A program made the position numbers and the translations under genes. The notes under the pieces were generated by a model. It did no database searches. It was not told the DNA's origin and worked only from the letters and a program-made list of their open reading frames with translations. DNA of 64,000 nt from a virus (lineage: Duplodnaviria; Heunggongvirae; Uroviricota; Caudoviricetes), in the IMG/VR virus record IMGVR_UViG_3300023179_004209, positions 167,832 to 231,831 of that record; one strand, written 5' to 3'. Of the stretch, positions 2,201 through 34,326 are shown one piece after another (position 1 is the first letter of the stretch; each line of letters starts with the position of its first letter).

Positions 2201-5200
2201 TTATGAACTAATCAATGAATTTTCAGAAACTTGTAGATTTATTTGAGTTCTTTCGATTGGTGATGAATTATCACTATTGCCTTTATCATCTACAGTTGTA
2301 TATCTAGTTTGACTAGATTTTTTATAAAATGATCCAGTTGATGAATTAACAAAATATTGATTGGTTGAAAATCTTGAAATTCTTCTCTTTAAAGAATAGT
2401 GTCCTACTGGATATGATTCTGTATCAAAAGTTGAAGAATTATTATCGTATGTATTAAATAAAGATGACGAATTTGTATTTACATAGGAATACGTATTTAC
2501 GAACTTACTGCTAGAATTTTCCAAATTAGTATTTGGGTTTCTACCAAACAAATACACCTTTTTATTGTTTCTATAGATATAATTACTTTCATATTTATCA
2601 AAAAACGATCCGCTGATATCAAATACACTCAATCTTTTATCATAGTTTAAACTAGAGAACTGGAATGTTGTATAGTTATTAGACGTATATGATGCAGGAT
2701 GCATCGATGATGTCAATGAACCATATGTAGAAGAAGTTAATGGGAAGTTTAATCCATTTTTACTTAAATTAACTTGACTAGTACTTCTATAATTTCTTTC
2801 AAATGATGCAGAAAAGTTTTTTAATGGTTGATAAGAACTACTTAAATCGTATGCAATAGCACTATTTATTGGACGGTTTTGATATTTATTTCTTTCTAAA
2901 AGACTTGGTTCAATTAATATTCCATCAATTACTTTACTTCTTGCTGGAAGCAATTGTCTTACAGTTTCAAAAAAAGATCCATCAAAATAATTCTTATAAA
3001 GAGTCATAAACTCTTGATATAAGACTTGTTCAGATAAATTATATTTGTTATAATTGTTTCTTAATGTTTGTAAATTTTCATAATTTTCGGAATAAATATT
3101 TGATGGATTACCAATCAAATCCATTATATCATATTCACCCAAGAAATTCAAAATATCATCATCTCTTACTTTAAATGGCGAAATATAGACTGCTAATAAA
3201 TTTGAATCGGTAGTTACTAAATTATTTACAACACTAGTTTCATTAGCCATCAATCTGGCTTCAACTGTTTGTGTTGCTTTATTAATCTTTACATTTTTAA
3301 ATTTATTAGGTCCGTATTGTCCCAATTTAATATTTTGATTAATTTCAATTTCATCAAATTGATATGGATATAAAGATGCGGATACAATTAAACAATTTGA
3401 TTGAGTAGTAGTATTTTGTGCGAAATTATAGGCAGAAGCACTATATTGTGAGTATAATTTATTGGCATTTCTTACAACAAATAAAGCAGGTGAAGAACCA
3501 GTGTACATATTAACTGGATAATCATAACTATATCTAAAATACAAATTGTCGTAAGTTGTACTATCATCGTTTGTTTTATATGAATCAAAATTCTTACAAT
3601 GTTCAATAAATGATTCGTCATCCAACTCATGTTTCCATAGATTTATTTTGTCAATATTTCCTTGGAATAAATTACCTCCACCTGTATAGTTTCCTATATA
3701 GAGCAAGCCAAATGAATTGAATGTTTCATTTATACCTTCAGTTCCACTAATAATTGATTTTGTATCATCAAATACAATTTCATCGTTATCAACAGATGTT
3801 ACTCTTAAAGAATATTGATATGGCAATTGTCCACCTGAACCAGTATCATAACTGGAAGATAAATTAATTTGTTTAATTAATACATTGAATACATTCCCAT
3901 TAAACAATGGTAAAGAATCCGTTTCAAGATAATCCGTTGGTCTTCCATATGGAGAAGACATATCAAATTTTAATTTTCCAAAAGTATCTTTAGATTCTTT
4001 AGTAATTGATACATCCCAATTAGTAGTTTTTAGAAGACTAACTTTAGTATTTTGTGGATAAATATAATCACTATCAATTCTGAATTTGAATTCTATTGAA
4101 TTGACATAATTTGATGACCCGGACACTGGAATTACTATTGCATCCCCATTTCTAGTATATTTTGTAAAATAATATTTGTTTTGGTATGTGTAGGATGAAT
4201 TATCCTCATCAGATATCTTATTACCACCGTATTCCTTAACATTCAATAAACTACGAGGAATTCCATATATATTAGATACTACTCTAATGCATTCTTCGGT
4301 TCCTTTGGTCTTATAAATCAATGGAAGAGTCTTTAAAATTCTATTCCAAATTATCTTTAATTTGTCATAATCGGAATAAGCGTTTGATCCAGTCAAGTAA
4401 TTAGATTCGATGGATGAATTGTCAAATGAACTGATTGGATTCCATCCAAATTGTTGTAATAATGTATTTGCTACAGTACTTACATAACTTGATGATAAAT
4501 TACTTTCAACATATTGTTGAGTTGGAAAGTTCTTAATGTACAAGTAAATATTATCAAAATGATGTCCGATCATTGATAAAAATATCAAATAATCAGTGTT
4601 ATTATCATCTAAAAGAATATATTCAGGCGTATTATTTACAAGACTATCTCTGTTATTTTTATCGAATTCAATTGCATTTTCAATATAATCCGGATAATTG
4701 TAATTTTGTACATATGCACCATTAACAAATGATGTTGTACTACCGCTTACTAATGTAATATTTTGATACAAATATGAATCATATCCATCAAATGAATTAA
4801 ATATAGTATTTAATTGTGATTGGTATTGATTTATTTCTTCTGCATATGATGCACTAATAAATGAATATGATGTTAATAGTGTATAAGATGACGCACTATT
4901 CGCAGCAGATGCGGATAGAGTAGTCAATATAGAATTAATTGACTTATTAAGTTGATTGATTGACGTAACTTTATTTAAAAATAACTTGGTTCTTAATTCA
5001 GCAGAACCGAATACAATGAAATTTGAGAAATCGGAATAATCTACATTAAGATTGTTTAATTTCTTATAAAATTCTACATCATTTTTTGTAGTATTATCTA
5101 ATTTCAAATCATTCGAATTTTGATAATTTACAGGAGAACTTTTATATGAATCGGTTGCTATTTTAAAATTTGGTCCTGATATTTTAAAATTTCTTTTAAC

Positions 5201-22550: not shown

Positions 22551-22935
22551 TGGTGGACATAAAGGGAGTCGAACCCTTGTCTTTAAAACAGTATCATAAT
22601 CAGACTACGTGTGTATACATTTTTTAGTTGTTAAGAACAATTATATTAAATGTCAAAACTAATTGTCCTAAAGATTTACAAAATATTCAACCAACAACGC
22701 AAATCAAATTGTTGATATAGCCTGATAGTTTACACTCAATATTATTATCAGACATCATAATATCAAATGTGCAGCCAAATTAGGCTGCTAGTGCTACTGC
22801 ATCACGGGAGGTGAAGTTGTAGCTGATTACATTATCTTCAGCAGTTAATGTTTTGATAGAAGTTTTAAGAGGCCAACTATCATCCTCTACACGCCTAACT
22901 AGTCAATTGTCTTAAATCGAAACCAGTATATGCCC
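22551..22935 (-). ncRNA. ssrA: tmRNA; tag AEDNVISYNFTSRDAVALAA encoded at 22780-22842
   Basis: 5' GGGCATA pairs with 3' TATGTCC-ACCA with a G3:U70 Ala wobble; T-arm AAGGGTTCGACTCCCTT; tag ORF ends ALAA-stop within the GCAGCC/GGCTGC hairpin. Confidence 0.95.
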
Positions 22936-24423: not shown

Positions 24424-24455
24424 ATTTAAAAATCGTTATTTAACTTATTCCAATT

Positions 24456-24552
24456 ATCGCCAGTTGGGTTCTGCACTAAACATAACACCCAGTGACCGAT
24501 CAAGTGTTTTAACTTTCGTTGGGGACACCAGATAGAGTTTCAACCCCGAACA
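24456..24552 (-). ncRNA. Conserved structured leader RNA, copy 1 (5' of tRNA array 1)
   Basis: Homologous to 33477-33590: TTGAAACTCYATCTG, TTGATYGGTC, TGGGTGTTATGTT...TGCAGAACCCA...GGCGAT, with compensatory stem changes. Confidence 0.7.
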
Positions 24553-24559
24553 TGTATTT

Positions 24560-24587
24560 AATTTACCACACCTTCTCATTTTGTCAA
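24560..24587 (-). promoter_or_regulatory. Sigma70-type promoter of tRNA array 1
   Basis: TTGACA-16bp-TAAATT with extended -10 TG. Confidence 0.7.
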
Positions 24588-26196: not shown

Positions 26197-26301
26197 TTAT
26201 CTAGCTCCACTTGGTTTTGGAGTTCCACTTGGCTTTGGTGTGCCTGTTGGTTTTGGAGTTGAACTTGGAGTACCACTTGGTTTTGGAGTTGGTGTTGGCA
26301 T
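26197..26301 (-). CDS. Small TPKPSG-repeat peptide (34 aa)
   Basis: MPTPTPKPSGTPSSTPKPTGTPKPSGTPKPSGAR; AAAGGA upstream; synonymous variation between repeats; downstream terminator. Confidence 0.65.
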   Translation of the reverse strand: MPTPTPKPSGTPSSTPKPTGTPKPSGTPKPSGAR

Positions 26302-31764: not shown

Positions 31765-31890
31765 TGGCTCCAGAGGAGGGTTTCGAACCCCCAACCCTGC
31801 GGTTAACTTTGGCCTTGTGAGATTTGCACTCTCTATTAAATAATACTTTATGGCCCACAGCCGCATGCTCTACCATTGAGCTACTCTGGA
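31765..31890 (-). tRNA. tRNA-Asn(GTT) interrupted by a 51-nt insertion in the anticodon
   Basis: Removing GTGGGCC...GGCCAAA restores the canonical 75-nt tRNA with loop CTGTTAA. Confidence 0.75.
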
Positions 31891-31891
31891 A

Positions 31892-32368
31892 TTAAATTGT
31901 CAATAAACCTGCGTGAACTTCTCCGTGACAATTATGACATAATAACTCACACTTGTCAACTTCTAATTTTAACTTATCAAAACTAACAGATTGTCCACTA
32001 ATTTGAAAATCTTTTTGTAAAGGATCTTTATGATGAAATGTAAGATTACCAAAATAATTTTTGTATCCACACTTTATACACTTACCGCCTTTATATTCAA
32101 CTAATTTTTGTTTAGTTCTTACTCTCCAATCAACAACGGATTTTACTCTTCTGGTTTTTCTTTCTTCATTCGTTAATTTATTTTTGCCTACCGGTCTAGT
32201 ATTTAGATACTTTATCAGAGTTCCTCTACAATGTCCATATTTTTTTTGACAATCTCTTAAAGAATTTCCATCGTCATAAAATGCTTGAATTTCTTTAAGT
32301 TCAGAATCAGTGATTGTTTTAATCCCCGCTAAAATTCTTTTTTGTTTTATAATATCAGATGTTACCAT
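31892..32368 (-). CDS. HNH endonuclease (free-standing, inside tRNA array)
   Basis: CIKCGY...LTFHHKDP...KCELLCHNCHGEVH motif; N-terminal HTH-like segment. Confidence 0.9.
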   Translation of the reverse strand: MVTSDIIKQKRILAGIKTITDSELKEIQAFYDDGNSLRDCQKKYGHCRGTLIKYLNTRPVGKNKLTNEERKTRRVKSVVDWRVRTKQKLVEYKGGKCIKCGYKNYFGNLTFHHKDPLQKDFQISGQSVSFDKLKLEVDKCELLCHNCHGEVHAGLLTI

Positions 32369-33169: not shown

Positions 33170-33245
33170 TGGTTACCCCACTTGGATTTTCACCAAGGTT
33201 GATGTCTCAGAGAACACATCCGTCCTAAACCTAGACGATAGGGTA
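33170..33245 (-). tRNA. Atypical Glu-like tRNA with 10-nt anticodon loop
   Basis: Glu/Asp-type D-arm TCGTCTA..AGGAC, stem GATGT/ACATC closing GTTCTCTGAG, CCA. Confidence 0.55.
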
Positions 33246-33253
33246 ATTAAAAT

Positions 33254-33332
33254 TGGGGTGTACGGCGGGATTCGAACCCGTATCTGCCAGACTCACAATC
33301 TGGGACATTATTCCAGTTATGCTACATACACC
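33254..33332 (-). tRNA. tRNA-His(GTG)
   Basis: Loop TTGTGAG, G-1:C73, CCA. Confidence 0.9.
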
Positions 33333-33344
33333 ATTACTATAAAT

Positions 33345-33419
33345 TGGAGCCTCCTTCCGGGCTTGCGCCGAACTCTGGGGTTTACAAAACCTCTGCATCG
33401 CTGCCTATGCTTAGGAGGC
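33345..33419 (-). tRNA. tRNA-Thr(TGT)
   Basis: Loop TTTGTAA, C2-G71, atypical T-loop, CCA. Confidence 0.85.
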
Positions 33420-33476
33420 ATCTAGAAAATTACTTCATACTTGCCTTAACACAGTAATCACCTCAGTAATACTGTC

Positions 33477-33590
33477 ATCGCCCTATGGGTTCTGCATCTC
33501 AACATAACACCCACGGACCAATCAATTGATTTTCCCAGTCTTTAACCTTTGGTTACTGGCGGCGGCTCAACAGATGGAGTTTCAAGCCTT
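33477..33590 (-). ncRNA. Conserved structured leader RNA, copy 2 (5' of tRNA array 2)
   Basis: Homologous to 24456-24552, with covarying stems. Confidence 0.7.
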
Positions 33591-33605
33591 ATCTAATCTT
33601 CACTA

Positions 33606-33633
33606 AGTCTATCAGAACTTCAGAGTTCGTCAA
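33606..33633 (-). promoter_or_regulatory. Sigma70-type promoter of tRNA array 2 (second candidate TTGAAG-16-TAGATT at 33696-33723)
   Basis: TTGACG-16bp-TAGACT with upstream A-tract. Confidence 0.7.
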
Positions 33634-33727
33634 CAACTTTTTAAAATTTTCTTTTCATCATCCAATGAACTACTTACGTCGTTCACTGTTTAACTAATCT
33701 ACCACACTTACAAAGAACTTCAAGAAC

Positions 33728-33766
33728 AAAAACAAAAAACCGTCACTTTCTTCTCAGGTGACGGTT
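33728..33766 (-). terminator. Attenuator terminator 2
   Basis: AACCGTCAC/GTGACGGTT 9-bp stem plus TTTTGTTTTTG. Confidence 0.85.
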
Positions 33767-33796
33767 GACATTGTTTAAATTTCTCTACACTCAAGT

Positions 33797-33874
33797 TTAT
33801 ACAATATCACCGTCAACACATTCACAATTTGTAAATGTATCCCAACGCTTAATATTTGTATAATGTACTCTCAT
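33797..33874 (-). CDS. Leader peptide 2 MRVHYTNIKRWDTFTNCECVDGDIV (25 aa; alternative start 33883)
   Basis: Manual translation; TATATATA motif upstream; last codons form the antiterminator; composition matches array 2 tRNAs. Confidence 0.82.
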   Translation of the reverse strand: MRVHYTNIKRWDTFTNCECVDGDIV

Positions 33875-33918
33875 TATAATCATATATATAAACAAAAAAT
33901 AAAAAACACCAAACTATT

Positions 33919-34326
33919 TCATCTTTTTACACTTTTTCTCACCATACTCACCACACTGCTGCCATAATCCCTCTCTACCTCAAACCCAAACCGACCATAA
34001 AACCGCATCAACCGCTCATCACCTCCTCCATCATCATCACTACTAGGTATACACCGTATATCTAACCCATTAATATCCGCAAACTCACACAACCGCCCCA
34101 TAACCTCCCCACCTACGCCCTGCCCACGATACTCCTCCCTCACATACATATCACTCAAATACACACTGCCACTGTCATTTATATACACTCCAAACCTATC
34201 TATCTGTATATACTCATTTATCACATTTCTCTCAAATACCTCTATTTTCTCATTTATTGTATCCATATATCTATATATCCTTTTTTCCCATAAAAAAATT
34301 TTACCCCAGGATTTTTTAAGTTTCAA
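33919..34326 (-). CDS. GNAT-family N-acetyltransferase
   Basis: VYLSDMYVREEYRGQGVGGEVM motif A and LMRFYGRFGF motif B; true start probably downstream of the ORF-track start. Confidence 0.85.
   Translation of the reverse strand: MKLKKSWGKIFLWEKRIYRYMDTINEKIEVFERNVINEYIQIDRFGVYINDSGSVYLSDMYVREEYRGQGVGGEVMGRLCEFADINGLDIRCIPSSDDDGGGDERLMRFYGRFGFEVERDYGSSVVSMVRKSVKR

Follow-up and report, generated by a model that had tools for sequence, protein, structure and literature searches.

Ribosome-mediated transcription attenuation is classically represented by the enterobacterial trpL, hisL, thrL, ilvL/ivbL, leuL and pheL leaders, in which a short open reading frame (ORF) stands before an intrinsic terminator and the RNA can adopt three helices, 1:2, 2:3 and 3:4, of successively falling stability. 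A component of the translation machinery is controlled in the same way in E. coli, where the pheM leader attenuates pheST, encoding phenylalanyl-tRNA synthetase, and senses charged tRNA. T-box riboswitches also choose between antiterminator and terminator according to tRNA status; they do so by direct binding of uncharged tRNA, without an ORF. To our knowledge, essentially nothing is known of how the tRNA arrays of phages are regulated. The purpose of phage tRNA genes is itself debated, with codon compensation and evasion of tRNA-cleaving host defences as the leading proposals (PMC10264068, PMC11464382), and our literature search on phage tRNA-array regulation found no attenuator on tRNA genes. 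Here we describe a unit with the enterobacterial layout of short ORF, intrinsic terminator and three helices of falling stability, placed upstream of a tRNA array in a 64,000-nucleotide stretch of phage DNA (the window). The virus record from which the window comes comprises 295,831 bp at 31.7% G+C, and the phage is a large freshwater one of a widespread lineage.

The leader unit, its helices and its promoters

The window holds two tRNA arrays, both on the minus strand, and the features discussed below are collected in Table 1. A preliminary description of this DNA had proposed a 25-codon leader ORF whose coding region folds on itself and whose last codons form one strand of a 15-bp antiterminator overlapping a terminator stem. 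Re-examination found every coordinate and sequence of that description correct on the minus strand: the ORF runs from its ATG to a TAA; the coding region folds into one long imperfect hairpin (1:2); TGACGGTGATATTGT pairs with ACAATGTCAACCGTCA over 15 bp, with one G–U pair and one bulged A; and ACAATGTCAACCGTCA includes the 5′ arm of the stem AACCGTCAC / GTGACGGTT. Both ends of the putatively translated frame precede the terminator, which consists of a 9-bp stem followed by a U-tract. Hairpin 1:2 spans codons 4–25 and region 2 occupies codons 20–25, region 1 thus lying inside the ORF. Calculated energies are −22.3 kcal/mol for 1:2, about −20.0 to −20.6 kcal/mol for 2:3 and −12.0 kcal/mol for 3:4, so that the antiterminator, which is mutually exclusive with the terminator, is also the more stable of the two. 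The region as a whole folds better than its shuffled versions (z = −3.2), and the 2:3 pairing is above chance, its duplex energy being matched by 0.16% of dinucleotide shuffles of the ORF (P = 0.0016) and by 0.02% of random 78-nt genome windows (P = 0.0002).

Table 1. Positions of the leader unit, its parts and the neighbouring genes in the window.
Feature	Position	Strand	Remarks
GNAT acetyltransferase gene	34326-33919	-	leader unit sits between GNAT and array 2
Promoter P1	33883..33912	-	TTGGTG 33912-33907, 18-nt spacer, TATATA 33888-33883; ends 8 nt before ATG
Predicted transcript start	33877	-	A of AUAAUG; placed from the -10 position; leader about 3 nt
25-codon leader ORF plus stop, MRVHYTNIKRWDTFTNCECVDGDIV	33797..33874	-	ATG 33874-33872; TAA 33799-33797
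Hairpin 1:2 (protector / possible pause hairpin)	33797..33863	-	-22.3 kcal/mol; 5′ arm 33863-33830, loop 33829-33827, 3′ arm 33826-33797
Region 2, antiterminator 5′ strand	33801..33815	-	TGACGGTGATATTGT; codons 20-25
Variable spacer, stop codon to region 3	33776..33796	-	21 consecutive variable columns and indels, 54 units
Region 3, antiterminator 3′ strand	33759..33774	-	ACAATGTCAACCGTCA; overlaps terminator 5′ arm; AACAATRTCAACCGTCAC conserved
Intrinsic terminator 3:4	33726..33766	-	stem AACCGTCAC / GTGACGGTT 33766-33738, then U-tract TTTTTTGTTTTT
Promoter P2	33696..33723	-	TTGAAG, 16-nt spacer ending TGTGG, TAGATT; directly after U-tract
Second promoter-like site, array 2	33606..33633	-	TTGACG-16-TAGACT; consensus scan only
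First array-2 tRNAs	33254..33419	-	weak tRNA-Thr(tgt) 33419-33345; tRNA-His(gtg) 33331-33254
tRNA array 2	33331 to 30352	-	ARAGORN; weak tRNA-Thr(tgt) upstream at 33419-33345
tRNA array 1	24423 to 23227	-	phage tmRNA directly after

We tentatively read the unit as a ribosome-mediated transcription attenuator with a leaderless message, controlling the read-through of P1 transcripts into tRNA array 2, a reading that we hold to be nearly an even call. Host RNA polymerase would start at P1, 0–3 nt before the AUG, and a ribosome would begin the 25-codon ORF while the RNA emerges. With no translation, or with a ribosome that runs on to the stop codon, region 2 would be sequestered in 1:2 or hidden under the ribosome, region 3 would pair with region 4 and the transcript would end at the U-tract. 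A ribosome lingering at about codons 6–15 (T-N/H/D-I-K/N-R-W-D/N-T-F-T) would mask region 1 and free region 2, and the 15-bp helix 2:3 (−20 kcal/mol) could then form before region 4 is made; with 2:3 in place the terminator (−12 kcal/mol) would be blocked and the polymerase would continue through P2 into the tRNA genes. P2 would provide basal transcription of the array, the switch adding a conditional part only.

Ribosome-footprint modelling was carried out at equilibrium only, and the dynamic steps above are what we infer. In this simulation the terminator probability drops from >0.9 to <0.2 when the A site is at codons 6–9 or 13–16, and the terminator forms without translation or with the ribosome at codons 1–5 or 17–stop. 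Most of the variants from relatives switch like the window's leader, with productive positions within codons 6–16; the equilibrium simulation gave no switch in variants L027 and L064, nor in leader 1, the sister leader in front of array 1.

P1 is preserved among relatives in some detail: across 54 distinct units that follow different genes, its −35 element (TTGNTG), the ATATATAT block and an A-rich stretch upstream of the −35 are all kept, the spacer measuring 17–18 nt and TATATA stopping 8 nt short of the ATG. The genes of this phage lack a Shine–Dalgarno signal and are depleted of G before their starts, and sigma70-like promoters abut start codons at ∼4 times the random rate in a scored scan, with modes at 6 and 9 nt. 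Given this habit, the absence of a Shine–Dalgarno signal and the 8-nt distance from P1 to the ATG, the leader mRNA is probably near-leaderless. In run X17 an RNA contig and a contig joint both have an end precisely at 33877, a weak hint in support of the predicted start, and RNA-library contigs from three studies span the ORF, the terminator and P2; such contigs cannot prove starts, ends or expression, DNA carry-over being possible, and uncovered parts were left uninterpreted. An X17 RNA contig also joins sequence just past the terminator U-tract (33728) to 33877, which may reflect a circular or tandem junction, or else an error of assembly. P2 is conserved in all relatives. Since it lies between the terminator and the array, array 2 is not dependent on read-through, in departure from the attenuator class, and the proposed switch would only add transcription.

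Relatives of the unit and signs of coding

More than 120 metagenomic homologs of the GNAT protein were found, and 21 loci were reached via the GNAT gene, 20 of these being new from eight contig look-ups and the other being L001. These 21 loci are unbiased with respect to the leader, and a homolog of the unit was present in every one, at 81–97% identity. Two pattern scans on 20–31 nt inside the ORF added 71 loci, bringing the total to 92 units, 47 of which are distinct over the core (alignment A1); with 47 distinct variants, the homologous loci are not assembly copies of one sequence. A distant-mode blastn comparison of the region with phage records found no match.

Either the GNAT gene stands immediately before the unit or an insert intervenes, which is a carbamoyltransferase, a 270-residue gene or a pair of genes of 490 and 253 residues; in L001, the first relative found in IMG/VR through GNAT, the next gene differs and the unit is present further downstream. 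With at least four different genes upstream of it across relatives, the unit therefore travels with the array and not with the upstream gene. Cargo between GNAT and the unit was seen in L013 and L017–L021 (about 2886–4493), in L022 (2835–3647) and in L027 (6347–8577). In all of them the insert stops at one and the same A-rich junction ahead of P1, pointing to a possible recombination hot spot.

Conservation follows the outline of the proposed helices. Only 14 of the 75 ORF columns vary, whereas all 21 columns just past the stop do so, with indels, after which AACAATRTCAACCGTCAC is conserved again; the 9 nt of region 3 that lie outside the terminator stem are thus conserved while adjoining a hypervariable spacer. 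Part of the ORF invariance is imposed, since 71 of the 92 loci were found by patterns inside the ORF. Strong conservation of the unit led us to reject the idea that it is the remnant of a decayed gene. Over the 47 sequences, helix 2:3 is paired in 705 of 705 cells and hairpin 1:2 in 96% of its own cells. Terminator 3:4 is 99% paired in the relatives, with changes from G–C to G–U and from U–A to U–G and one CAAC/GTTG extension. Covariation, proposed in the preliminary description as a check, gave a divided result: the variable paired sites of 1:2 all stay pair-compatible (A–U / G–U, and in one pair U–A / U–G / C–G), its remaining variable sites falling in the loop and bulges, while 2:3 lacks two-sided covariation. 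With 13 pairs unchanged throughout and one-sided changes in the other two, 2:3 draws its support from conservation and not from compensation. Pairing of AACAA with the U-tract is a conceivable alternative reason for the constancy of these bases; this pairing is present in only 79.5% of cases and is not conserved, and so cannot explain the conservation of AACAA.

The order of stability, dG(1:2) < dG(2:3) < dG(3:4), is kept in 46 of the 47 variants. The exception, L025/L026 (one variant in two assemblies; L025:6379-6519), carries a T-to-C change in the 5′ arm of the terminator that creates a C–A mismatch in 3:4 and gains a G–C pair in 2:3, and this leader is predicted by the model to read through constitutively (terminator probability 0.01).

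Stops or frameshifts that would break the ORF in relatives were sought and the frame was found intact in 92 of 92 homologous units, all of which keep the ATG, the 25 codons and a TAA or TAG stop; two of them are exceptions in form. In one, L030, 6 nt are inserted in frame in the apical loop, and in the other, L061, the nine bases after the ATG differ with frame and length unchanged. Intactness is a low-power test here, because the antisense frame in the same register is equally open in 47 of 47 sequences. Synonymous changes among the relatives fall at V3, K9, R10, T15, E18 and V25, and the replacements interchange H, N, D, K, Q, E and R at positions 4, 7, 9, 12 and 16, with D to G at position 21. 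Taken together, the synonymous changes, the in-frame insertion and the 5′ replacement that keeps the frame are hints that favour a translated ORF. The two ends of the ORF also fall at the edges of promoter and hairpin, which limits the coding evidence further. A plus-strand ORF (33765-33863) was also considered and set aside: it is open in all relatives, but lacks a conserved start and crosses the indel-rich spacer.

Leader composition, the two arrays and the sister unit

With relaxed settings, ARAGORN finds in array 2 tRNAs for Thr, His, Arg, Glu, Trp, Asn, Tyr, Phe, Lys, Asp, Ile, Val and Cys. Arg(tct), Arg(acg), Val(tac), Glu(ttc) and Trp(cca) are detected at standard settings, and Lys(ttt), Asp(gtc), Ile(gat), Phe(gaa) and Thr(tgt) are called only at relaxed thresholds; the tRNA-Thr(tgt) call, weak in the window, is clear in relatives. 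Array 2 further contains an odd tRNA gene with an enlarged anticodon loop (33170-33245, minus strand), which ARAGORN reads either with a four-base anticodon, ‘ctct’, or as Gln(ctg) with a 3-nt insertion; as it recurs in the arrays of many relatives, it is not an assembly error. Also inside array 2 lies an HNH-endonuclease-like ORF (31892-32368, minus strand), adjoined at 31768-31890 (minus strand) by a 123-nt tRNA match with an insertion, called by ARAGORN as tRNA-Asn(gtt) with a 51-nt insert. Around array 1, a phage tmRNA with the tag AEDNVISYNFTSRDAVALAA follows directly (22551-22935, minus strand), and the array is preceded by a 452-residue gene upstream of which a small ORF encodes the repetitive peptide MPTPTPKPSGTPSSTPKPTGTPKPSGTPKPSGAR (26207-26301, minus strand), flanked by two intrinsic terminators at 26377-26350 and 26175-26145.

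The preliminary description held that the leader samples the amino acids of its own array, with Gly as the single non-cognate residue. In the window this is so. Of the 24 non-initiator residues of leader 2, 23 belong to the array-2 set, Gly being the one outside it (P = 0.003, the null being all ATG-initiated frames of the genome), and array tRNAs were found for its Arg codons of both classes and for Lys, Val, Thr, Glu and Trp, those for Lys and Thr at relaxed ARAGORN settings only. For leader 1 the count is 15 of 16 residues in the array-1 set (P = 0.0009, same null). Base composition is not the explanation of the match, because stop-free mononucleotide shuffles reach it at 1.3e-3 for leader 2 and 1.2e-5 for leader 1. 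The match is the more noteworthy for occurring in two paralogous frames whose payloads differ. It is plausible that Gly is fixed by the antiterminator strand, and the change from GAC to GGC that yields a second Gly in relatives retains pairing in both 1:2 and 2:3.

Among relatives the claim fares less well. Most of them encode MRV(Q/N/E)YTHIKRW(D/N)TFTNCECVGGDIV, with 21–22 of 24 residues in the set (P 0.01–0.03), and carry Q4, G21 and G22, the closest match being that of the window. Whether leader codons co-vary with array content was tested for His and Gln, the other tRNAs being called too unreliably. A leader His codon and a tRNA-His gene in the adjacent array occurred together in 8 cases, the codon only in 23, the tRNA only in 5 and neither in 2, without positive association, and no association was seen between leader Gln codons and tRNA-Gln genes across the relatives. 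Replacement residues lie within the array set in 13 of 16 cases by hand tally, estimated as not significantly above background. The leader has no codon runs, its 13–14 amino acids each appearing 1–3 times, and only about ten stall codons are productive in the simulation. That the leader is deliberately built from codons served by its own array, such that a shortage of these tRNAs, whether through high demand or through host tRNA-cleaving defences, would raise their synthesis, thus strikes us as possible and on the whole doubtful.

A paralogous unit stands in front of array 1 as well; its P1 shows the same geometry, and its terminator stem and P2 (TTGACA-16-TAAATT) are related to those before array 2. 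The ORF of this unit consists of 17 unrelated codons, MNSVSQPSQASQLPSGS, and is conserved as three variants in four loci; its antiterminator is weak. Between P2 and the first tRNA, both arrays have in common a conserved non-coding leader (33420-33690 and 24430-24580, minus strand) that includes GGnTTGAAACTCnATCTG and a hairpin, TGGGTGTTATGTTnAG(n)TGCAGAACCCA. A scan with the shared leader RNA returned array-1 homologs only, and a third tRNA cluster, from genome position 277362 onward, has a promoter and no leader ORF. On the composition of the two leaders one might suppose that both arrays carry paralogous near-leaderless attenuators, each ORF having diverged to the amino acids of its own array, through which the phage would sense tRNA supply by ribosome speed; we regard this wider proposal as rather unlikely.

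Competing explanations and comparison with known leaders

The strongest competitor to attenuation, somewhat unlikely in our judgement and still a serious one, is an autonomous small transcription unit, in which P1 would drive a ∼150-nt RNA ending at the terminator and acting as the mRNA of a 25-residue micro-protein or as a trans-acting small RNA. The single-stranded AACAAURUC before the terminator would be its seed, the terminator would both end the RNA and shield P2, and the complementarity of region 2 would serve RNA stability or seed masking and not read-through control. Bacterial small RNAs typically carry a conserved single-stranded stretch beside a terminator hairpin, and the unit does possess a conserved promoter of its own and a strong terminator with a second promoter right behind, terminator-then-promoter order and promoters at the ATG being this phage's normal gene style. 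The mostly invariant peptide positions with several synonymous changes, and the leader codons that do not co-vary with array content, point the same way. Such a unit would leave unexplained the exact complementarity between the conserved 9 nt and the closing codons of the ORF (a 15-bp pairing with P about 0.002, kept in 100%), the persistence of the dG order in 46 of 47 variants, and the presence of a paralogous unit with a different ORF at the other array, both ORFs being enriched in the amino acids of their own arrays; no target or peptide family is known for it, and Rfam yields no match.

Quite unlikely, in our estimate, is a ribosome-independent switch, with a protein of phage or host origin, a tRNA or some small molecule stabilising 1:2 or 2:3 and the ORF being incidental. 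Its appeal lies in conservation that is strongest in the helices, with all variable paired sites compatible and the other variable sites in the loop and bulges, and in the equally open antisense frame, given which the ORF could be a by-product. This reading sits poorly with an ATG that is invariant at a fixed distance from the promoter, a stop codon placed exactly at the conservation boundary, an indel that is in frame and a replaced 5′ segment that keeps the frame. It also finds no counterpart among curated cis-regulatory RNAs, T-box and known leaders included: Rfam searches in gathering and E-value modes gave no family at threshold besides tRNAs and tmRNA, and comparison of 33200-34000 with the Rfam Trp, His, Thr, Leu and Phe leaders, T-box and others gave chance-level matches only, up to E = 10. 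The bulge/loop motif of the T-box antiterminator is absent as well, which sets the unit apart from T-box riboswitches. A further possibility, very improbable, is that the structure simply terminates the GNAT gene, whose stop codon lies ∼150 nt before it on the same strand, and that ORF and complementarity arose by chance in a 3′ untranslated region. Against this, the unit is found whole downstream of four different genes, exceeds its flanks in conservation and possesses a conserved promoter, and its complementarity is above chance.

Should attenuation be the correct reading, this would be the first case of ribosome-mediated attenuation of tRNA genes. Ribosome progress on a test ORF would be coupled to tRNA transcription as demand-sensing control of the arrays. 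On the wider and rather unlikely proposal that each leader senses the tRNAs of its own array, the phage could boost just these tRNAs on demand, for example after depletion of its Asn, His, Asp, Lys or Thr tRNAs by anticodon nucleases of the host, and would have a feedback arm for phage tRNA counter-defence. With attenuation as such, leader-peptide control would be extended both to a new target class and to leaderless messages. Despite the phage being uncultured, the idea is directly testable in E. coli or a reconstituted system, because the element is small and self-contained and carries sigma70-type signals.

Set beside the enterobacterial leaders, the unit shares the order of parts of the trp and his attenuators, with an ORF that covers region 1 and ends at region 2, and the predicted outcomes are the same, termination upon no or full translation and read-through upon a stall in region 1. 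It differs from these leaders in being phage-borne, in having tRNA genes as its target instead of biosynthetic enzymes, in its probably near-leaderless message without a Shine–Dalgarno signal or a run of a single codon, and in the promoter between the terminator and the regulated genes; it also matches no Rfam leader. Where pheM senses one tRNA via clustered Phe codons and controls a synthetase, the phage leader is mixed and the product would be the tRNAs themselves. The leaderless polycysteine ORFs of mycobacteria, reported to act as cysteine-responsive attenuators (bioRxiv 10.1101/834739), resemble the phage unit in that a short regulatory ORF at or near the 5′ end of the transcript acts through its own translation, as we propose here. 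Those ORFs are cellular, contain runs of Cys codons and regulate genes of cysteine metabolism, in all of which the phage unit differs, and in the phage unit an intrinsic-terminator switch is explicit in the sequence.
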